Source of the DNA: a virus
Taxonomy: Duplodnaviria; Caudoviricetes
DNA: 29,141 bases
Strand: one strand, 5' to 3'
IMG/VR virus record: IMGVR_UViG_3300027571_000050
Location: 1-29,141 of that record
The translations under genes were made by a program, and so were the position numbers. Shown piece after piece: positions 7,904 through 29,141 of this stretch. The notes beneath the pieces were generated by a model. The model saw only the letters and a list, made by a program, of their open reading frames with translations. It had not been told where the DNA came from and made no database searches. The first letter of the stretch is position 1. Every line of letters begins with the position of its first letter.

Positions 7904-8557
7904 CTAAACCTCTTCTAGCGTTACAGATATATTCCAGAAGTCAAAGTTATTTGCGCCACGCTTTTCTACAGAGTAGGAGAAGTCAGAAAAGAACATCTCA
8001 ACTATCTGGTTATATTGACCTAGGTGTGCGTATGCCGAATCGTCATCTCCAAAAGATGAGTACTTGTCGTATGCAAGGTATACCCAGAAGGATCCGGAAT
8101 GATTTTCGTACCAATTAAGGATCTCGACACCACCAGCTCCGCCATCTGTAGTATACTCAAACTGATTATTACCATACATATCTGACCTTCCAGCTGTAGC
8201 AACGGGGTCTTGAGATGACTCTATGGCAAAATCTGGTCTAAGAGCATATGATCTAGATGGTAGCATGTCCCACGATGTAGAAATAGAAAGTTTGTCGGCC
8301 ACGTGAAAAGACCTCATTCTTCCATTAATCATTCTTTCACGATTCTCTATACGCTCTATATCAAAGTTGATGGGGCCACGGTTGTCGTCTGATAGGATTA
8401 TAAAATCGTCACTTAGCGTACCCGAATAGTCTGCACCCACTTCGTAACCCTGTGGTAGGTAAAGTCCGTTCTCCAATGTTCCTGGGTTATTTGCCCAAAG
8501 CATTGCCTGTGGCCTAGCATACTTAGTACGCCCTGACATGTAGTCTGATGTTGCCAT
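7904..8557 (-). CDS. Distal tail protein (Dit-like)
   Basis: 217 aa immediately after the tape measure gene. RERMINGRMRSFHVADKLSISTSWDMLP and a terminal WNISVTLEEV are typical of tube-fold distal tail proteins. Confidence 0.65.
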   Translation of the reverse strand: MATSDYMSGRTKYARPQAMLWANNPGTLENGLYLPQGYEVGADYSGTLSDDFIILSDDNRGPINFDIERIENRERMINGRMRSFHVADKLSISTSWDMLPSRSYALRPDFAIESSQDPVATAGRSDMYGNNQFEYTTDGGAGGVEILNWYENHSGSFWVYLAYDKYSSFGDDDSAYAHLGQYNQIVEMFFSDFSYSVEKRGANNFDFWNISVTLEEV

Positions 8558-11500
8558 TAGAACCTGTTACTCCTAATCCTCTGTGAGTCAATCTGCTTAA
8601 TCTGTGTCATAACCGATCTTGCAATTTGATCTGGGTTTGCATCTGATTTTACATTTACGTTTACACTATAATTATACACTGATTCGCCAGAATATGTTCC
8701 AGAGTTTACAGCCTTCATTTTATCTAGTCCAAAGTTCTGTACTGCATACTTACGCATTACGAACTCTCCTGGAGTAAGCATTGCTGGAACTGTGTCTGTG
8801 CCCCTGGCAAATCCCCCAGCTGCAAAATATTTTGGAACCATTCCACCAGATGATAACGGTATTGAATACTTTTGACCTGGGTATATCAGGTTGGGGTTGC
8901 TACCAATAATAGACTTATTGGCATTATAGATCTTCTTCCACTGTGAGGCAGAACCATAAAACTTTTTGGCAATTCCAGATAGCGTATCGCCACTCTTTAC
9001 GGTATATGTTTTTGTAGTAGGCTCTGCAGCTTCTGGTGCTGGGGTCTGCGTAGGCGTTTCTGCTGGAGTTGGCTCAGTCGGTGTAACTGCTTCTGTAGTG
9101 TTGTCACTAAGTATCTTATCTGCATCAACAGTGATAGAGGCAGATCCATCTTCACCTATAGTTAGGTCTACGCCTTCGATGGCATTAAATGCATCTATGA
9201 GTGACTGCTTATATGCATCAGTTTTTGTTATAGCTGCATCTATGTTACCCTCAATAAGTGACCATGCTGTTGCACTCTTGCCAAGATAGTCTAGCTCTTC
9301 AATCCGAAGGTCTCTGGCTTCCTCTGCAATCGTAAGCAATCTTTGATTTGGTTCTATCCTTGACTCTTCAATTTCGGCAATGTTTTTGGTTAAAGTTTCA
9401 ATTTCTGATTCTATCTCTTTTTTGGTTAGAGTCTTTTCTATCTGCTTTCCAGTCTCCTCATCCCATACTTTGAATGTAATCTTTAGGCTTTCTAGTTCTG
9501 CCTTGCGAGCCTTCTCTAGGTTTGTTGACTGTGCATCTCTTGCTCTCTCAGCCCGAAGCTTTCTCTCTTCCCTCTGTGCCTTTGCTGCTGCTGCTAGGTC
9601 ACCAGAAGCAAGAGCATCTGCTACATCTAGCTGTGCCCTTGATTGCTCGACTAGTGCCTGGTTTGACTCGTAGATACTGTCTAAAGCTTCCTGCCTTTGA
9701 TCATACTTATCATTTATCTTTGACTCTTCTTCAGAGATTAAAGATAGTCCGTACTGGTAGTCATCTAGAACTACCTGGTCTTTTGCAATTTCTTGCTGAG
9801 CTAGCTTAATTGCATCTAATGTGTCCTGGTTATCTGCGGTAAACTGTAACTGTATTGCATTTTCCTGAGAACTAAAATAACCCTGAATCTTACTAAACTG
9901 TTCCTTTAAGTATGAGGTTCTGCCCTCTGGCGTTGATAGCTTTAACTCTAGAGACTTTTTCTCAAGTACGTCAAAGTCTTTTACCAACTGCTGGACTTCT
10001 TCTGAGCTTGCAGCGGTTGCAATACTAAATGCTAGCTGAGCATCCTGTGCCACTTCAAAGGCGTCTGCCAAAGACATTCCTGCGGCACGAAGCTTTGTGA
10101 TAGCCTTAAACTGCATATTTACATCTGACAACCCCTGCCTTAACGAAAGCTGGAAGTCTCCAATAGTTACTTCAGAGAATGCCTTGGCCATAGCTTTTCC
10201 AGCTGAGGTTACCTTGACAACCCCATCATTAATCGATACAAAAGTTTTTCTGGTTTCTTCATCTAGACCATTGATGTAATCAATGAACTCTCTGCCATAG
10301 CCAGCTGAAACAAGCTTTTGGTCAAAGCCCTTAAAAATTTCAATGTTCTTAGTTCCTCCAAGAACCCTCTTCAATTCTCCTACTCCACCAGCTGCATTGA
10401 TTGCTGCATCTCTAACCTGCTTTAGTCTAGTAAGAATGCTCTCAAATGGGTCTTGCTTTTGTGAGCCGTTGGAAGGTGTTGGTGATGGATCAGTTTCTTC
10501 TGTCCCGCCAACATTTTGCTGTTTGCCCTTTTGGACTTCGTATGCAGCTGCTTGATCAGAGTACTCTCTCATAAGGTAAGCTTGGTCATACTTCTCTAGC
10601 TCATAGCCCCTTCCTGTGGCTAATAGATATCTTTGCACAGAATTCCAGTCTCCAGTTGCTACGAAGTCTACGAAGACTGAAGCGGAACCAATCATTCCCT
10701 CTCCGAACAAAGTATCCCAGTTGTCAATTATAGCTTGTAGGCTTGGATCTTGCAAATCTTTGTTAAAATTAACCAAGAAGTCTTTAGACATTGTCTCTGG
10801 CATACCTTGAATCAGCTTGACCATGTCTGTAACTTCTTGAAGGGTGTTTGTGTTTGATGACGCAGTTAAATCAATATTAATGCCATACTCTTTATTCATA
10901 TTGGCTATTTGAGACAATGCCTCTACTTTGTTTTCATAGTCTTCGTCTGTATCGAATTGAGCTGACAGAGAGAACTCTTGAAGATATGTGGACATTCCAG
11001 CTTCATCAAGACCTGACTTTATAAGTAGGTCCATCAGCTGGCCGCCTGCAGCTGTCCCCTTTTCTTCTACAATTAAATCAAATTTTCTTTTAACAGATGC
11101 GTCCGTCTTGTCTAAACCAAGAAGCATGTTTACGGCATCAATGCTGAGATCTTTCGATGCGAAAGAAAGCTGCAAGGTTGTGTAGAATTCAGTGTCATCT
11201 CCAGCACTAAAGGCTTCGGATGCGGCATCATTAAGTCTTGATACTGCATCTTCTGCAAATACTCGTAACGGATTGTCCTCTTCATATCCAGATAATACCG
11301 ATGACTTTATAGCATCGCCAAATACCTTGGAGTCAAACTCATCCTTATAGCCAACAATGACGTCTAATGACTTTGAATTAGCTGCTAGCAGGGCATCAGT
11401 ATCTCTTTTTCTATCAGCTATTAGAGAGTTTAGTTCATTTTCTAGCTTAGTTCTTTTTTCAACATCTGAGGTTGCAGTAATTTGGTTCTTTAAATCATCT

Positions 11501-14500
11501 TCTCTAGTTTGGTATTGAGAGTTTAGAGAATCTAAGAGTTGTTGGTTCTGCTGTACCTGATTTATTCCAAGAGCTATTGCTGCTGATTGCAACTCTGCAG
11601 TTTGTCTAGTTTTTTCCAAAATAAATTCTGGGTCAAGGTCTGATATGTCAGAGTTATCTGCACCAATTGCAAAGCCAAACCCATCTGCTGCCCAACCTTC
11701 TAGTCCTGCTACAAAGCCATCCCAGCCACCTCTTGCATAGGCAATGTCTCTATCTACGGCGTCTTGAATTCTCTTGCCAGAAATTGCATCTTTGATTTTA
11801 CCCGACAATGCTTCTGGATCAGTCGCTAGAGCTACAGTATCTGATAGACTTTCTAAGGATTGTTGTTGGATTTCTAGCATTACCCTGAGAGGATTGTTTA
11901 TTAGGTCTGTGCCATTTGGACCAGTAATGCTAATTACCGTGGCTGCCACATCTGCAGCAAAGCTGTAGTCATTTAGCTCTGTGCCTATGGCAGATGCAAT
12001 ACTTGCTGCCTCTCCAGATGTTAAAATGCCCTCTGCCAATCCAACAGAAAGCTGTCGGCCAATCGCTGCTGCTGCGTCTGACTTTGAAAGACCCTGGGAG
12101 ATTAGAGTGTCTATGTCTCCTAGCAGGTTTTGCCCCGCCTCTGATTCTAAGTATGTTTGACCATATTTTCTTTGTGCGTTTGTATCTCCAGCTAGCTGGT
12201 CTTCTTGCTCTCTTCTTCTGGACTCTGTAGCTGATACACGGCCAGTTGCCTCTGACATAGCTATTAGCTTTGAGGTGTTCATAGTTAAGGCGTCGCCAAA
12301 CTTCTTGCCGTCCTCCCTAGCCTTATTCATCATCTCATTATATTTCATGAATGCGAATACTCCTAGCCCAACTACTGCCACTAGAGCAGCTATTGGTGCA
12401 CTAAGAGATAACAAAATCGGACCAATCATTGCAAGTCCGCTTGCAATTGGAACTATAGACTGAGCAATCTCTCCAACTTGACCACCCATACCAGATGCAA
12501 CACCAGCACCCATTGCAACCATTCCTGCCAAACCAGCAACCCTGCCTGCACGAGATACACGCTTTTGAGCTTTAGATTGCTTTGTTAGCTTTTTGTATGC
12601 CTCTCCAGTCATTGGAGTTCCGTCTGGATTGGTTACTACATTTCCGTCTTTATCATAAGCTAAAGGCTGTGTTCCTGGAACATCCGTTCCAACCTCAGCA
12701 ACCTGCTGTCGCTGATTTGCAAGCTCTCTCTTACTTCTATCTAGCTGTGTTTCTCCAGCTATATCTGCAATACCATCCATGCCAGCATTTTTACGCATAG
12801 TGTCTGCAAGAATACCGCCATACTTTGTCTTACCCAGAGCACCGTCCATAAGAGAGGTTTCAATCTTTCCTACGATCTTGCCACCGATGCCTGAAAGCTT
12901 TCTCTTTGCTGTTCCGCCAATAGATAGGTCAGCGTCAGACAGCCCGTCTACAATATTATTTTGCATTGATGGCAGCCCCATCCTTGCTGCTGCTTCATCT
13001 GAAATACCGCCAGAAGGAGCTGTAGGTGAGGTTGGGATTGTTGGTGGGCCATAACCGTTCGAGGAATTTAGGCCAGCATCGAAGTTGATCTTATACTCTC
13101 TAGCATCATCTGCACCATCGGGACCAGACAATGGATGAGGACTGTTACGGTCTCTAGCATACATGTATGGATCTTCAGATTTTGCCTCTACCTGTCTTCC
13201 AAATTCTTTTGCGTACAGGTCTGCGTCTGTGGTGGCATCCGCTACTGGCTGAACAGATGGGCCATTCAACTTATCTAATGATCTTGTTCCTGTTTCAAAG
13301 GTTCCGCCTGGAACAACATGTTTGCCAGCACCTACCGTAAAACTATTTGTCCTAAGCTTACCAGACGACTTGGTCCTTGCGACTGCGATGTCGGTGCCCG
13401 TAGCAAAAACTTGAGGCCTACCAGCGGTTTGCCTTAATTCTCCCTCTCCAGATGCTACTATGTCCTCGTAAAATGCTTCTGCAGAACCTGCAACCTTTCC
13501 AGCTGATGTCTTTATATTTTGAACACCGACTTGACGTGCAGTAACTGGCATAGAAGATCGTGCCTTCATTCCAGCAGCCACGTCCTGCCTTGCTTCATTT
13601 CCAGATGTAGCAAACTCGTTTATAACTGTGTTGGTCACATCTGCCATTAGCTGATCTAGCCAACCAGTGACTGATTTATCAATGTTTCCGTTGTCTATAG
13701 CACTTGCTATTCTTTGACCAATCTCAACATCTAGCTGTGATACTGCAGCATCAATTGCTGCACCAGAGCCCATCTGTCCTGCTGCCTGTGCCCTAGAAGA
13801 AACATTCTTAAACCCCTCTCCAGAGTTCTTGTCCCACTCAGAGGTGAACTCCTGTGAAGACATTCCAGTGCCTCTGGCTTTTTGATTTAGGGTTGTGGAT
13901 TTTGTTGCGGTTAAGTCAGACAGGACTATGGTTGCTTCTAGCAGTCTGTCTGAGAATGTAGAAATTCTTGGGAATATTTTATCTAACTCGGCTAGAATTG
14001 CTGGAGTTTTTGCCATTGGCATTGACATGTGCGTCTCTTGCATACCAGGGGTTCCCTTTGCAAACCCAGGAATGTTGTCAGAGATGATCCCCTGAATTAA
14101 TGGACCATATTTTTTTGCCCTATCTGTAGGAATAACAGCTTCTCCAGGAGAAAGCATGGCTGGCACTATATCTCCAGCACCCTTTGGACCAGGAACGCTA
14201 AATATACCACTAGCTAGCTTTAAGGGGTTTCCCTTTGGATCTACAAGCCCAGTGGTCCTACCCATTGTCCTGCCAGTTGCAGATGAAATATTGTATGAGC
14301 TAGCGGCTGCGTTTGCTGCCTGATATGCCCCTACAAGATTATAAAGTGCTCCTGCTTCAGAAGTAAATATTTGAGCTAGCTGAGCATGTGTCTGACCCAA
14401 AGATCCTGCAACAGCAGCAGCCTCTAGCTGTTCTTGTGTCATGTAGCCTAGCTCCATTGACACTCCAGAGGATGCACCAGACAAAGAAAGCATTACGCTT

Positions 14501-16242
14501 CTTACAACACCAAAACCTTTTATTAGGTTCGCTACACCGTTAGCTAGTAGACCAAAAGTCATTAGCGCTACTGGGGCAATAAGTCCTAGTACAGCAATTG
14601 CTCCAATAACAAATTGCTTGACTCCAGCATCCATATTGTTAAATTGCTTTAGCAGCCCATTAGCAAACTCAATGATAGGGGTTATTAGCTTTATGAATTC
14701 TTGGCCCAGTGGAACCAGAGATGCCTTTATGTCTTCTAGTGACTTTTGGAACTTGTAGGCTGGCGAATCTTCTACACGCTTTAGCTCTCTCTCGGAGAGG
14801 ATTGCTAGCTCTGCTGCGGTTGCCCTTGAAAGATCTAGAACTCTTTGTGCCTGAGTACCCTCGGCAATAACGTTCTGGAACAATGTTGAGATACGGGAGA
14901 ACTGGAACTTTCCAAACAACTGTTCGATGGCTTGGGCTCTATTTAGTGGATCTAGCTTGTCTAGAGCCTGGGCAAAGCCAATAACTGTTCCCTTAAGATC
15001 TCCAGCATTAGCCTCTACGAGACCCTTGACATTTATGCCAAAACTTGCAAGCATGTCAGAGGACTGCTTAGTAGGATTAATAAGTGAAGCAAGACCAGAC
15101 TTTAGCGCATTGGCACCCTCGGAAGCATTAATGCCACCTTCACGCATGGCGGTCAGGAAGTATGCTAGATCTTCTACGTCTCCACCAAGCTGCTTTACAA
15201 CAGGACCAGCCTTTGGAATAGCAATGGTCAAGTCTTCGATTGCTGTAACTGTTTGGTTTTCTACAGCGTTTAGGAAGTCTATCTTAGATGCTAGCTCTTC
15301 TGTGGAAACTCCAAAAGCATTTGTTAGAGAGATTGAGGTCTTTAGGGCTTCGGACTGTTCTACCCCACCAAGAACAGCAAGCCTTGTTGCTTCTACAACC
15401 TGGGCAGTAAGAGCTGCACCCATCTGACCCATTGCAGCGGCTTCGGCTGCCAGATCCATGGTGTCTTTAACTGCAATGCCATACTTGGTGAACTCAGAAG
15501 CTAGTCTTTGGATACTATCCACCATCTTGTCAGTTTCTGCTGCTGTGGTGTTTAGCTCCCCGTAGACCCTCTTAAACTTTATTACTGCATCTTCCATCTC
15601 CATGAATGCTTTGCCAGCAGTGGATGCCATAATAGAAAGTGGTAGGGTGAAACCAACCATAAGCTGGCGACCAGCCCACTGGGTGTTTTTACCAAAGTTT
15701 AGAAGATTTGTAGAACCTTGCTTTAAGAGCTGATTAAAAACTTGCTGCTTTTGAGCAGCCATTTGCATCTGGGTTCCCAGATTGTTCATATCAAGGGATA
15801 GGGGCCTTACCTTGATTGCTTCAATTGCTCCGTTGGCATCCCGACCCATTTTTATATATTGGGTCTGAATGGTCTTTACCCGTTCACGAGCAACTTTGTC
15901 AATTGTATTAAATTCATTTTTGAACATGCTACTAAAGCTTTTAGTAGATGCCATACCGTACTTAAAGTACTGGCCCATTGAAAGCTTATTTTTTTCCAGG
16001 GACTCTGTGAATGAGTCTGCTGTACTTTTTACATTACTTAAGCTTGCAGAAAATTGTTTTGTAGAGTTTATAGAATTTATTAAATTCTTAGACATGTTGT
16101 CTGACATAGCAGCATTTGCTGCACTACCAGACGTTCTTAAGGACTGATGAAAGGCCGATATCTGACTTTGTAGGGCTTTGATTGACGCCAACGCACTGGA
16201 CGTATCAATATTAATCCCAATATTGGTTTCAATATCAGCCAT
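8557..16242 (-). CDS. Tape measure protein (TP901-type core) with LysM domain
   Basis: 2561 aa, Ala/Gly-rich and helical. TP901-like core region ([43 protein letters not shown]...AIEQLFGK), two hydrophobic clusters and a coiled coil. Follows the chaperone genes and has SD GAGGT. Confidence 0.95.
8857..9012 (-). other. LysM peptidoglycan-binding domain within the tape measure protein
   Basis: [52 protein letters not shown] is a canonical LysM sequence, preceded by a Pro/Thr/Glu linker. Confidence 0.93.
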
Positions 16243-16265: not shown

Positions 16266-16589
16266 CTATTTGCCCAAGTTACCTACCACGGAGCTATCCG
16301 ACATCTTAATGCCAGAGGCTTCCTCTACAATCTTATAGACTGTTGGTAGGTCGATGTTGTCTTCCAACGCTTTGATGTCTCCAGCTAGCTCTGGCTTGTA
16401 CTGCTCCATAGCAATCTGAACACACTCCATTAGAAGATTCATTGACTTGTCATTATCATCAGCTACTGCTGCGATGCCCTCGAACTTCTTCATAAATGAG
16501 CGAAGTAAGGAAATCTTTAGTGGACGAACTGTAAGCTCGGTTCCATCAATTAGCTTGATGCTTTGTGATTCATTGACTGTTGTAGCCAT
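16266..16589 (-). CDS. Tail assembly chaperone, short form (gpG-like); paralog of 16646..17341
   Basis: 107 aa directly upstream of the tape measure gene. About 44/96 identities (manual alignment) to the N-terminus of the adjacent 231-aa ORF. SD AGAGGA. Confidence 0.8.
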   Translation of the reverse strand: MATTVNESQSIKLIDGTELTVRPLKISLLRSFMKKFEGIAAVADDNDKSMNLLMECVQIAMEQYKPELAGDIKALEDNIDLPTVYKIVEEASGIKMSDSSVVGNLGK

Positions 16590-16625
16590 CTATTCCTCTT
16601 CTCTATAACCAATATGGTCTTATTA

Positions 16626-16636
16626 ATTATACCACA
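16626..16636 (-). promoter_or_regulatory. Extended -10 promoter TGTGGTATAAT for the short chaperone and tape measure operon
   Basis: Perfect TRTGnTATAAT in a 56-nt intergenic gap, 36 nt before the ATG, with an SD in the leader. Confidence 0.75.
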
Positions 16637-16645
16637 AAGGGGATT

Positions 16646-17341
16646 CTATTGCTTGGTCAAATCAGTGTAATCTAGGCCCAAACCTATGCCAAATCCAGAT
16701 TGTTGAGCCTTATAGCCTTGGAATGAAGTGATGTCATTAGGGTCATTGGTCTTACCGCCACTAAATACCCTGGCCTTCATCTCTTCCCAAGCATTTGCAT
16801 TGCTGTTACCAGTCTTTTCGTCTAAGTCTATACCCTGAATCGCTGCCAAGAATTTTTTCTGCTGATAGTCAGCTTCGTTTTGACTCTCCAGTATTGCTAT
16901 TAGCTCAGGCATGGACAGTGAGGTTTCTAGCTCCTCGTAGTCTTTCCAGATACCCAGCAAAAAAGCACGGCTTTCAAGCTTAGCAAGATCCAGTGTTTCC
17001 CAGGAAGATCCGCTCTGCGTTGCCTGCTCTTTTACGCCCTCATCATTTTTATCAGCATCTACTTTTATTCCAGCTGCAACATCAAGTATCTTATATATGG
17101 TTGGGAGGTTTACACTGTCTTCTAGATCATCTATTGTTTTTATTGATGGATAGTACTGCTTCATCGCTACCCTGGCACACTCTGCTAGAGCAGACACCGC
17201 TTCTTCATCTCCAGATGCTTTTTTTACATCTTCAAACTTTTCCATAAACTCACGAAGGTATCTAATCTTAAGCGGAGTAAGATATAGCTCTGTTCCGTCT
17301 ATTAGTTCTATGATTCCAGTGTCGTATATTTTACTTGCCAT
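16646..17341 (-). CDS. Tail assembly chaperone, long form (gpG-T-like, in-frame fusion)
   Basis: 231 aa after the major tail gene. A G-like N-terminal ~95 aa, a polar linker, then a helical T-like domain (WETLDLAKLESRAFLLGIWKDYEELETSLSMPELIAIL...). The frame is uninterrupted. Confidence 0.8.
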   Translation of the reverse strand: MASKIYDTGIIELIDGTELYLTPLKIRYLREFMEKFEDVKKASGDEEAVSALAECARVAMKQYYPSIKTIDDLEDSVNLPTIYKILDVAAGIKVDADKNDEGVKEQATQSGSSWETLDLAKLESRAFLLGIWKDYEELETSLSMPELIAILESQNEADYQQKKFLAAIQGIDLDEKTGNSNANAWEEMKARVFSGGKTNDPNDITSFQGYKAQQSGFGIGLGLDYTDLTKQ

Positions 17342-17347
17342 CTTACA

Positions 17348-17356
17348 AGTATACCA
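17348..17356 (-). promoter_or_regulatory. Extended -10 promoter TGGTATACT, leaderless start
   Basis: TGGTATACT-TGTAAG-ATG, with a 6-nt spacer and no SD. It abuts the U-tract of the upstream terminator. Confidence 0.75.
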
Positions 17357-17393
17357 AAAATAAAACTGCCCCGACCGAAGCCAGGGCAGTTTT
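17356..17393 (-). terminator. Intrinsic terminator after the major tail gene, C(UUCG)G tetraloop
   Basis: Minus strand AAAACTGCCCTGGC-TTCG-GTCGGGGCAGTTTT-ATTTTT. The inner stem uses G-U pairs that work only on the minus-strand RNA. Confidence 0.9.
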
Positions 17394-17420: not shown

Positions 17421-18083
17421 TTAGACAGCAGCGGGGATTACTCGGTCTACGATCTTACCGTATGAACCAGAAGAATCTGGTAGTAGACGGAAAGAAACCT
17501 CGAACATTGTAGCCTCGTCACGCTTAGCGGATACGGTTACGTTCTCGATTGATAGAGCACGGTAAGCAGTGTAGATACGCTCAATGCTTGAGCCAGCCTC
17601 ACAGTCACCCGTACCAGGACCAACTGCAACAAGACCACGCTCAACTGGACACTCACCTAGGTTACCAGATGCAAGGTTAAGAGAGGCTGAGCCTGTTCCT
17701 AGTCCTGTAACACCAGTAATAGCCTCGTCCCAGTCAGCTGCGTTACCAGCGATGGCTAGAAGTAGGTTCTCTAGAGTTGCCTCAGCGAAAGCTGTGTTCA
17801 TGTTTACGGTCATACCCTGCTTGTATAGCTTTGCAGCGTCAAGTACCTGGTCAACCTGTACCTCACCGAAGTCAGGCTGGAAGACTAGTTCTAGACCGTT
17901 CATTGTGTAACCAACGTTACGATATCCTGCACCGAGTGTTTCATCGGTCAGGGTGTCACGGTAGGATGTGCCGTCTGTTGAATAATCTGGAAGATCCGTT
18001 GCTGGATCAATAGCTCCAGAGTATGCAAATAGAGCAGCTGCACCAACGATGATCTGTGCTGAATCACCACGTGTATATGCCAT
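17421..18083 (-). CDS. Major tail (tube) protein
   Basis: 220 aa. IIVGAAALF, YRNVGYTMNGLELVFQPDFGEVQVDQ, TAFAEATLENL and FEVSFRLLP are siphovirus tube motifs. Strong SD GAGGTG and a downstream terminator. Confidence 0.92.
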   Translation of the reverse strand: MAYTRGDSAQIIVGAAALFAYSGAIDPATDLPDYSTDGTSYRDTLTDETLGAGYRNVGYTMNGLELVFQPDFGEVQVDQVLDAAKLYKQGMTVNMNTAFAEATLENLLLAIAGNAADWDEAITGVTGLGTGSASLNLASGNLGECPVERGLVAVGPGTGDCEAGSSIERIYTAYRALSIENVTVSAKRDEATMFEVSFRLLPDSSGSYGKIVDRVIPAAV

Positions 18084-26121: not shown

Positions 26122-26130
26122 AGTATACCA
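26122..26130 (-). promoter_or_regulatory. Extended -10 promoter TGGTATACT, leaderless, for the portal operon
   Basis: TAG-TA-TGGTATACT-AGTGGTT-ATG fills the intergenic gap, with no SD. Confidence 0.75.
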
Positions 26131-26132
26131 TA

Positions 26133-29100
26133 CTAAACTGGTGTTACGACTGAAGAATCCCATTTTACGTCTTTATATACAGAATATTTGTAAGAATTAA
26201 ACTGAAGAGTCTTATCTGATGTTACTAATATCCTATTTGTTCCAGAATACTCTCTAAATATTGTAGAGGGATCTACTATATAGGCTCCTTCAACAGAAAT
26301 ATATAGAATATCCTGCCATAGCAATTGTGTGGGTGTAGTTAGATCTTCCCAAAAGTTTGCCAAATCTGATAGCTGATTCCACTTTCTAAAGATAACGCTC
26401 AGGGATGTTTGAGTGGATGGTAGCTGATAGTAAGATATGTTGTTAAATAGTGCTGGGCCAGTTAGCCTGATTGCACCAAGCTCTCCCTCAAACAGTAAGG
26501 AATCTGAAAACTGAATACCGATAATAGACCAGGAATCCATCTCTAGGAATAGGTCCTTGACGATAATTCCATTTAGGTAATATGCTATACCAGATACTGG
26601 AAGCTTAGTCTCTTGATTAATACCGTATATCTGACCACGTGTTCTTGATGCATTAGTGGCTACTAAATAAAACTTTGCGTATAGGTTCGAAGACTCTACC
26701 TCGAAAATCTCTGTAGCAGTTTCTGGAAAAAGTCCCTCTTGGTACTGCATGGCAAACTGGATAGCACCAATTGCATACTCAGTGACAAGCGATCTGTTTA
26801 TGGGTATTGATATGCCTGTCTTACCAGGGTCTCCGCAGACTTTTATACCGCTATATTTTGATGTATAAAGGTATGGGGTGCTACCCTTGTAGGTAGAATA
26901 TGCACCTATAGACTTATAGTTATAGTATATTGCACTTCTAGAGTATGGGTATATGTCATATCCGAATCTAGTTCCGACTGGATTTGGGGACTTAAAGTTG
27001 AGAGACTGTGAGGCTAACTGAAGGCTTTTCACCTTTACTGGAGTAGTCTGGGTACCTGGATTTTGTATCTCTACGTGAATTCCAATAGACAAGTTCTTAA
27101 AGTCTGCACTAGATGGAAGTTTTATGATATCTCCAGAAACTACCTCGTACTTTGTCTGTAGCCACTCGGATCCTGGCTGAACTACGTGGTTTTGAGCAGG
27201 CTGTGCCCTTGTTGTAAAATATTGATCCAGACTGTTTGATCCATTAGCCAGATACTGGAAGGTTACATATGTCCTAACTATGGAGCCACTAGTGTCTATG
27301 GATCCATCTGGAGATGTGAGCGGCCTTGGGACTGAACAATTAAACTGAATAAAATCTAGGTCTAATACCGTATCCCCAGACCCATCTGATACGTAACTAG
27401 CCAAATAAGAAAGAGGAACATAGTCTTCCCAGTATGAATCTACAGCAACATCTAAAGTAAAGGTGTCTACTATGTGTCTAGGAACCATTGTGTAGCTTGC
27501 TATGTGGTCCTGGAACCTTCCAAAAACAAATGAGTCCGCAAAGCCACCATCCATCACTGCCTCGAAAGATACCCACGTTCCAGATATCGGATCTATAAAT
27601 CCACCTATCACATCAAATGGTATTTGTCCGTCTAGGCCTTCTGCGTCAAAGTAAAGATAGAAGACATCTGAGAGGTCGGACGCCGATGATGCCGCTCCGT
27701 TATTACTGAAGAATGATTCGACCTTTTGTGCATTTCGGCTTGTGCAGAATCCAACATTATATATTCTTCCAGAGAATGTTTTTTCAAAATTTTTGCTTCC
27801 ACCAACGTAAACCTTTAGCTGATCCTTATTTCCAAAAAATGTTTTTAGGCTACCGTTATAAGTATTGGCAAGCTTTTCTATATTAAGACCTACAGAAAAC
27901 GCCACGTTTGGAACAATTGTTTCTAATGAGTACAGAGTACTAGCTTCTGAGTTGCCATATTTAAACTTATAGCTAATGAGGTTATCTTGTAGGGTAATTG
28001 CAAAATAGTTTCCTGTTGTTTCATTCTCTATGTTAACTAGTATTTGCTCTAGGGCTGAGTTCTCGGTTGGCTTAACAACAGCATAGATAGCAGCAACATC
28101 CTCTCCAATAGCATTTAGCTTATTAAAGAATAGGTATCCGTTTTCAGAGGACCAGTCTGTTGGCCTTAGAGTTATATAATCTCTAGCCTCTCCAGAAGAA
28201 TTATTATCCACCTTGTTCTCAGATAGCCAGTTATTATAAGTTCTAGATGGTGAAGAGAATACCGCCGATGGTGGCAAATAGTTAGGTGTTGAAATTGATG
28301 TGTTGTTTACAAATAGATTATCTGTAGCTCCCTGAGACCATCTACCAATATCTGGATAGTTGTAGTTGTTTGTATAGTCAGAGAATGAGTAGTCCATGAA
28401 AACTGATGCCCCATTATATGCGGTATTTAAGTTTTCTGGAAACTCGACCCCTTGACCATATACAAACCTTCTCTTAGCAACTACTTCTGGTACCCTGTAT
28501 GGATAGATGCCTATGCAATCAATCTCCATTACAGAAAGATCTTCATATGAATATATACCGAGCCAATCCTGATCCTTGTTGGTAGATGTGACTGTGTCAT
28601 AGATAAACTTTTCTGGAAAAGATAAGGAGTTCTCGTCTAAAGATAAAGAGATAACCACCTCTCCATTAACTATTAGGCTGGCCGACTTTGAGCTGATTCT
28701 TGTATCTAATAACATTGGCCTACCCCACTCTCCTACAAAGTGCGATCCTATAACATCCCCTATCTTAAGCATCAGGAATTGGCCGCTGACATATAGTCCA
28801 TCTGTTGAGTCTATGTATACGCCATTTGACAGAACCTTGCCTATTGGCCCCATAATTCTTCTTGGTTCGCTTGTGTAAGTATCTACCCTAAGCCAAAATT
28901 CTACGGTATGCTCTCTATACTTGCCAGACTCATTCATTGCACCAAAACCAGGGAAGATTATAGATGGTCCGCTGTTGCTATAAACCTTGGTAGAACTAGA
29001 TGCACCGTATACCATTGGAGATCCAGTGTTTCTAGCATAAAGCTGATTATCTGAAGAAATGTAGTAGGCGGTCTCATCTGCAAAGCCATATGGTGCTGCA

Positions 29101-29141
29101 GGAACTCCGTACTGCTGATCTGTGTATATTGATTCTGGCAA
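26133..29141 (-). CDS. Large beta-rich protein with concanavalin/LamG-like domains, 5'-truncated by the window edge; probably virion-associated
   Basis: The frame is open to the window edge (>1002 aa). LamG-like patterns: HTVEFWLR...ASLIVNGEVV, VYVGGS....FSGRIYNVGF and YYLNG.....WSIIGI. Rich in Y, S, N and G. Confidence 0.6.
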   Translation of the reverse strand: MPESIYTDQQYGVPAAPYGFADETAYYISSDNQLYARNTGSPMVYGASSSTKVYSNSGPSIIFPGFGAMNESGKYREHTVEFWLRVDTYTSEPRRIMGPIGKVLSNGVYIDSTDGLYVSGQFLMLKIGDVIGSHFVGEWGRPMLLDTRISSKSASLIVNGEVVISLSLDENSLSFPEKFIYDTVTSTNKDQDWLGIYSYEDLSVMEIDCIGIYPYRVPEVVAKRRFVYGQGVEFPENLNTAYNGASVFMDYSFSDYTNNYNYPDIGRWSQGATDNLFVNNTSISTPNYLPPSAVFSSPSRTYNNWLSENKVDNNSSGEARDYITLRPTDWSSENGYLFFNKLNAIGEDVAAIYAVVKPTENSALEQILVNIENETTGNYFAITLQDNLISYKFKYGNSEASTLYSLETIVPNVAFSVGLNIEKLANTYNGSLKTFFGNKDQLKVYVGGSKNFEKTFSGRIYNVGFCTSRNAQKVESFFSNNGAASSASDLSDVFYLYFDAEGLDGQIPFDVIGGFIDPISGTWVSFEAVMDGGFADSFVFGRFQDHIASYTMVPRHIVDTFTLDVAVDSYWEDYVPLSYLASYVSDGSGDTVLDLDFIQFNCSVPRPLTSPDGSIDTSGSIVRTYVTFQYLANGSNSLDQYFTTRAQPAQNHVVQPGSEWLQTKYEVVSGDIIKLPSSADFKNLSIGIHVEIQNPGTQTTPVKVKSLQLASQSLNFKSPNPVGTRFGYDIYPYSRSAIYYNYKSIGAYSTYKGSTPYLYTSKYSGIKVCGDPGKTGISIPINRSLVTEYAIGAIQFAMQYQEGLFPETATEIFEVESSNLYAKFYLVATNASRTRGQIYGINQETKLPVSGIAYYLNGIIVKDLFLEMDSWSIIGIQFSDSLLFEGELGAIRLTGPALFNNISYYQLPSTQTSLSVIFRKWNQLSDLANFWEDLTTPTQLLWQDILYISVEGAYIVDPSTIFREYSGTNRILVTSDKTLQFNSYKYSVYKDVKWDSSVVTPV

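Follow-up and report, generated by a model that had tools for sequence, protein, structure and literature searches.

The window analysed in this work is the whole 29,141 nucleotide stretch of the viral record IMGVR_UViG_3300027571_000050 (Caudoviricetes; positions 1 to 29,141), which also encodes portal, protease, capsid and tail genes. The putative tail chaperone locus lies entirely on the minus strand and is composed of a long gene (GT) and a short gene (short G), placed between the genes for the major tail protein and the tape measure protein (Table 1). In GT a G domain (amino acids 1-96) is followed by a variable linker and by a T domain starting at about amino acid 113; in a single frame the protein matches phrog_10504 over amino acids 1-99 and phrog_10474 over amino acids 131-192. 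Short G matches the G-type phrog_10504 only and has no T extension in any frame. By BLASTP the two proteins share 44 identical residues out of 96 (E 1e-27), as related, not identical, copies. A preliminary description of this DNA had reported two such ORFs between the two tail genes, the long one first with a -10 box right after a terminator, and the short one with its own -10 box and a Shine-Dalgarno (SD) site; all these elements are present, the boxes and the hairpin as promoter-like and terminator-like sites. TGGTATACT comes directly after the hairpin and is followed by six bases and the GT ATG. As a predicted site, TGTGGTATAAT is likely to serve the tape measure gene as well as short G.

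Table 1. Features of the GT and short G locus and similar promoter-like sites of the window.
Feature	Position	Strand	Basis
Major tail protein gene, 220 aa; upstream neighbour	17421..18083	-	phrog_2175, E 7e-31; tblastn to the annotated major tail protein of Streptomyces phages Faust, Evy, Karp
Intrinsic-terminator-like hairpin plus T run, predicted end of major tail transcript	17362..17393	-	14-pair stem
Extended -10 promoter-like site TGGTATACT, predicted leaderless transcript	17348..17356	-	ends exactly 6 bases before GT ATG
In-frame fused G-T gene (GT), 231 aa	16646..17341	-	phrog_10504 and phrog_10474
Extended -10 promoter-like site TGTGGTATAAT for short G	16626..16636	-	ends 36 bases before short G ATG
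Shine-Dalgarno-like AAGAGGA of short G	16594..16600	-	4 bases before ATG
Stand-alone G gene (short G), 107 aa	16266..16589	-	phrog_10504, E 4e-21
Tape measure gene, 2561 aa; downstream neighbour, predicted client	8557..16242	-	phrog_10030, E 5e-102; PF10145
Other extended -10 boxes	26130-26122, 21477-21469, 1038-1030	-	same box type before other genes

A tblastn search of 50,697 phage records gave 130 matching records (127 Streptomyces and 3 Rhodococcus), each matching at one place. In the 60 best and 45 spread rows the long protein was matched in two pieces, except in Rhodococcus phage Francesca (T only), and the genes under the matches mostly carry the annotators' label tail assembly chaperone. 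The Stanwilliamsviridae Faust, Evy, Karp and Yaboi have their genes in the order major tail, G, T, tape measure, the T frame being -1 relative to G and overlapping it; a joined CDS is annotated in Yaboi and in Francesca. Because of this overlap, the long protein of the window corresponds to what such phages would make by frameshifting. The window G and T domains are 35-45% identical to the Stanwilliamsviridae G and T, and the T domain of GT is 42% identical to the -1-frame T of Karp, which relates the C-terminal domain to the frameshift T extensions. By homology to these frameshifting relatives both domains are likely parts of tail-assembly chaperones, in agreement with the identity first proposed for them. 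Independent support for the label, weak but consistent, comes from the best BFVD match, named tail assembly chaperone (E 2e-6), from ESM Atlas neighbours among the chaperone G families and PF06223 (T) at 0.86-0.91, to be taken as leads only, and from sub-threshold Pfam hits (Phage_TAC_19, GP24_25 and T4_baseplate) in one to three of 121 alignment members. A structure model reached a pLDDT of 73. With the GT alignment as query Pfam returned DUF4778 alone (best E 3e-4), and direct comparison with lambda G and T (gpG/gpT) gave no significant similarity.

Relatives of the locus were collected by four scans of IMG/VR, two seeded with the window proteins and two with Streptomyces-led alignments, each contributing its best 80 matches. 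Together with four annotated records these gave 324 loci including repeats, a sample and not a census. The order major tail-GT-G-tape measure is found in 204 of the 324 and the order major tail-G-T-tape measure in 98; the other 22 show part of either layout and are, judging from locus length, cut by the contig end. No intermediate layout occurs among the 324, nor among the 75 further loci of a fifth scan around the group using the heptamer GGGAAAC (42 frameshift, 32 two-gene and 1 cut). Removal of identical rows left 128 unique two-gene loci and 69 unique frameshift loci. The 3780 protein clusters related to short G contain both layouts mixed.

All 69 frameshift loci have T in the -1 frame and a slippery heptamer after the last conserved motif of G, which is CCCAAAN in 39, GGGAAAC in 17 and CCCGGAA in 13. 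None of the 17 GGGAAAC loci departs from GGA AAC, and G GGA AAC is reported as a g-t shift site of an archaeal virus (PMC5009743). The two-gene loci have no conserved slip site in GT or in short G (128 loci), no frozen codons in the GT linker or in short G, and in none of the 128 is an alternative frame open for 60 codons after codon 97 of short G; the absence of frameshifting that the preliminary description had read from a single locus thus extends, as far as conserved sites go, to the whole set. Slippery heptamers are present at 5 of 128 short G ends. The GGGAAAC within GT of the window (W114-E115-T116) was considered as a slip site and rejected, being out of register for a -1 slip.

A tree was built from the major tail protein and the N-terminus of the tape measure protein (38 rows spanning the set, 513 columns, IQ-TREE, rooted on Francesca), with the window represented by locus L005, both proteins of which are identical to its own. 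All 17 two-gene rows fall into a single clade (100/99), which is joined to six GGGAAAC frameshifters as its sisters (99/96) and lies inside further frameshifting branches. Support for the two-gene clade was 0.37 in a first FastTree run and 100/99 with IQ-TREE on fewer rows. The tree of the T domain (62 rows) agrees, with T of GT nesting inside the GGGAAAC group (96/92 within 100/96). Since it forms a single clade nested among frameshifters, the two-gene state is derived and likely arose once, by duplication in an ancestor that used a -1 frameshift at GGGAAAC; descent from a frameshifting ancestor, implied by the original proposal, is borne out by both trees.

Trees of the G domain are less simple to read. 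Long and short copies each form one clade, and a larger group (97/80) unites both with GGGAAAC G; within it the best trees join short G to GGGAAAC G (100/96; 99/95) and leave the long copy just outside. A clade of the two G paralogues is not rejected (p-AU 0.22 and 0.07), yet it is not the best tree. The G-domain tree that had been suggested for finding the switch, in its best form, groups short G with the GGGAAAC G and does not recover the two copies as sisters.

The two G copies are 33-50% identical within two-gene loci and have diverged at different speeds, with a mean identity of 55% for the long copy and 69% for short G, the long copy being lower in 93% of 496 pairs. GT has replaced nine residues that hardly vary in short G or in GGGAAAC G (R22, S27, L28, K35, N46, S49, M50, V57 and Q58), and Tyr6, kept in GT (99%) and in GGGAAAC G (100%), is mostly replaced in short G. 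Judged from these alignments the divergence is reciprocal, in line with the earlier suggestion that two separate G domains are free to diverge. It would be the short copy that preserves the ancestral G surface, the long one having diverged faster. In 44 close pairs dN/dS is 0.10 for the G domain of GT, 0.06 for T and 0.08 for short G, and all three parts are under purifying selection. In the same pairs dS of short G is 0.31, about half of the 0.58-0.68 of GT, a possible sign of stronger codon selection on a gene with high expression.

Three other readings of the genes and their origin have to be weighed. The least probable is that the fusion is an assembly artefact or that the proteins are not tail chaperones. 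It can draw on the fact that no Pfam family passes the cut-off for the two proteins and that neither sequence profiles nor Foldseek against the PDB gave a significant match to a solved structure; the in-frame fusion is, however, found in 128 unique loci, which refutes the artefact, and isolated phages have homologues of both domains as a -1 frameshift pair flanked by the major tail and tape measure genes. Hardly more credible is that the long ORF itself recodes, by slippage or an early stop, to give a short form, the separate G being redundant or differently employed. Some perfect heptamer does occur in 20 of the 128 GT linkers, but this is about what the gene-wide rate predicts (0.006 per codon over some 22 codons), nine sequences are represented among the heptamers, linker length and codon usage are variable across the 128 loci, and short G is under purifying selection with its ancestral residues kept. 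Assembly artefact and hidden recoding are both unlikely in the two-gene loci. We regard as improbable, but less so, that the G domain of GT came from a distant frameshifting relative by recombination, or that the duplication predates the GGGAAAC split. The position of the long copy in the best G trees would fit this, as would the identity of GGGAAAC G to short G (62%) and to the long copy (45%). On the other side, the T domain of the very same long gene nests within the GGGAAAC group, the three kinds of G form one group in which monophyly of the paralogues is not rejected, and the long copy evolves faster, which could by itself pull it outward in the tree. In-place duplication is the likely origin of the G domain of GT.

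The start signals of the two genes differ, and do so throughout the clade. In a set of 89 unique loci TAnnnT stands exactly six bases before the GT ATG in 81, and 70 of these include TGn, a form that shuffled sequences give 0.36 times on average, so that the boxes before GT are promoter-like sites beyond chance. Of the 128 loci, 115 have a TAnnnT that precedes the GT ATG by 5-8 bases (by six in 100), 101 of these boxes being of the TGn form; in the other 13 the -10 box of GT lies about 9-10 bases before the ATG. These 13 (L203, L210 and the L214-L239 group) mostly have TAGAAT or TAAACT, with an implied leader of three or four bases. Short G is preceded by TGnTAnnnT in 128 of 128 loci, with TATAAT (TGnTATAAT) in 124, the box being 22-50 bases upstream; among the GT boxes TATAAT is found in 36 of 115. 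An SD-like motif precedes short G in 127 of 128 loci and GT in none of 128. The separate start signals first noticed at one locus are thus conserved across the clade. The G genes of frameshifting loci have TGnTAnnnT in 65 of 69, an SD-like motif in 68 of 69 and leaderless spacing in none of 69; from this resemblance, the leader of short G is the ancestral one, and the leaderless start is a gain of GT. The start codon is ATG in 128 of 128 GT and 127 of 128 short G genes, and TTG or GTG in 40 of 69 frameshifting G genes. In the earliest-branching GGGAAAC loci (L286 and L359-L362) the stretch from the -10 box to the ribosome-binding site of G contains a short inverted repeat.

In each of the 128 loci the 55 bases that come before the GT -10 box have a folding energy below -10 kcal/mol, and a strong hairpin between GT and G is found in 10 of 128. 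In one locus (L329) GT and G are separated by an inserted gene (1285-1842) that resembles endonuclease VII (PF02945, E 8e-22) and probably codes for a homing endonuclease. A leaderless-type site of its own, TGATATACT, stands six bases ahead of the ATG of the inserted gene. Farther downstream G still has TATGCTATAAT, a promoter-like site of its own as expected of separate units. The same extended -10 type precedes several other genes of the window (Table 1), some with a very short leader or none; the box at 1038 is 10 bases before an ATG and that at 26130 is 7 bases before one.

In phage lambda G and GT are reported at a ratio of about 30:1, and the binding partners are the tape measure protein for G and the major tail protein for T (PMC5009743); a TP901-1 mutant making only the fused GT is reported as non-infective (PMC4493119), which fits a need for separate G. 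For the two-gene phages, which are long-tailed, uncultured and form a large clade, the layout suggests how such a surplus might be made. The major tail transcript would stop at the hairpin before GT, and an extended -10 promoter of weaker consensus would then give a leaderless mRNA for GT, the only good route to GT, as this gene is without an SD site. Having no terminator between it and GT, G would be read from the GT mRNA too, and also from its own near-consensus promoter, with an SD leader like that of the ancestor. With two sources, G would outnumber GT; the direction of the ratio, G over GT, would follow from the layout, its size would not. A high G:GT ratio set by the start signals is plausible. 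On the lambda model, G would cover the tape measure protein, and the few GT molecules would bring in the major tail protein through their T domain. Taken jointly, a likely chaperone pair encoded by two genes, a single origin by duplication from a GGGAAAC frameshifter and a mechanism inferred from the start signals make up a reading that we consider highly probable. The fuller version, in which a leaderless, SD-free mRNA rations GT, an SD-led promoter floods the cell with G and the two G domains split the ancestral job, stands, as a whole, evenly poised between right and wrong.

The main competitor of this mechanism keeps the two genes as described and denies that start signals set the ratio: GT may equal G in amount, or the G domain of GT may bind weakly, the stoichiometry being fixed at protein level. 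In mycobacteria leaderless mRNAs are reported without systematic difference in protein/mRNA ratio and with lower predicted transcript production (PMC7148126), so that leader status does not predict that ratio there. The nine nearly invariant residues lost from the G domain of GT, R22 to Q58, would suit weak binding; the promoter type is shared with other window genes, and promoter weakness is not universal for GT, given TATAAT in 36 of its 115 boxes. Against this reading, the contrasts in SD motif (0/128 and 127/128) and in TATAAT (36/115 and 124/128) have been kept across the clade, and the gene order without terminator lets both transcripts yield G. We think it unlikely, though clearly less so than the alternatives above. 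In six metatranscriptome runs 5-10% of the words were present, and four that were examined held contigs of relatives, none spanning the locus; RNA contigs of this kind show neither starts nor levels, and no ranking of the genes is taken from them.

Comparison with known systems sets the locus apart at several points. Among the closest are the Stanwilliamsviridae (Faust, Evy, Karp, Yaboi) and Francesca, which share the protein families phrog_10504 and phrog_10474, the flanking genes and the terminator, extended -10 and SD leader before G. They differ in their overlapping -1-frame T, which follows CCCAAAT or CCCGGAA in the Stanwilliamsviridae; the Francesca heptamer is GGGAAAA. With lambda gpG/gpGT the window clade has in common the position between major tail and tape measure, a short and a C-terminally extended form, and the predicted roles. 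Unlike lambda it has no frameshift, T being in frame, its G domains are not identical, the order is GT then G, and similarity to lambda G and T is not detectable. T4 genes 26 and 51, which we take to be the two-gene chaperone pair of T4-like phages, share 20% identity over 161 amino acids (E 2e-6), far less than the window copies share with each other. They lie back to back on opposite strands, so separate promoters are needed there too, which is a precedent; the window genes instead form a tandem that starts with the long gene and is flanked by major tail and tape measure. The window proteins have no significant similarity to gp26 or gp51 (hhalign probability 2.5%), the gp26/gp51 family PF12322 matches 3 of the 121 members of the alignment, with a best E of 8e-4, and, in a further difference from T4-like phages, no sheath family match is found among the 21 window proteins scanned. 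The window clade also has frameshifting sister phages, so that the switch can be placed on a tree. By these comparisons the system would work like the T4-type pair without being a member of it, with a different family, a tandem order and an independent origin.

The -1 frameshift of long-tailed phages is reported as conserved (PMC5009743; PMC4493119), and for some T4-like phages one short gene and one fused long gene without frameshift are reported, as in the window clade (PMC10885494, citing Vladimirov et al. 2022). The two-gene concept itself is thus, by that report, not new, and the supposed novelty of the arrangement holds in part: we found no documentation of it as common and no literature description of the layout of this clade, in a search with poor coverage of subscription journals. 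What is new is an independent origin beside living frameshifting sisters, opposite modes of initiation that have been conserved, and the reciprocal divergence of the G copies.

The G/GT frameshift is among the most widely kept recoding events of phages. Two candidate reasons for keeping it are the control of the ratio and a need for identical G domains. A successful lineage that dropped the frameshift beside frameshifting sisters, and with culturable Streptomyces relatives, makes the question testable by locus swaps. If the switch to transcription and initiation is true, the near-universal frameshift would be kept for stoichiometry only, and the G surfaces needed by each form could be mapped; the reciprocal residue losses point to G surfaces that matter in the abundant or in the scarce form. 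For annotation there is a warning, namely that the second small gene in two-gene genomes is a G paralogue and not T.

The host may be an actinobacterium, a guess made from the isolated relatives. Ten loci are found in GTDB genomes, in bins of mixed taxa (Nanopelagicales, Acidimicrobiaceae, Bifidobacterium, Bacteroidota and Methylococcus), and these are probably mis-binned phage contigs. In the window, an ORF of 1002 amino acids without PHROG or Pfam match (26133-29141, minus strand) lies two genes upstream of portal and reaches the window edge. Amino acids 2413-2461 of the tape measure protein form a LysM domain near the C-terminal end, likely a cell-wall-binding addition. A frame change interrupts the tape measure gene of L045 and L140 (a single contig), where the near-identical L040 and L046 have it intact; the split is probably an assembly error.
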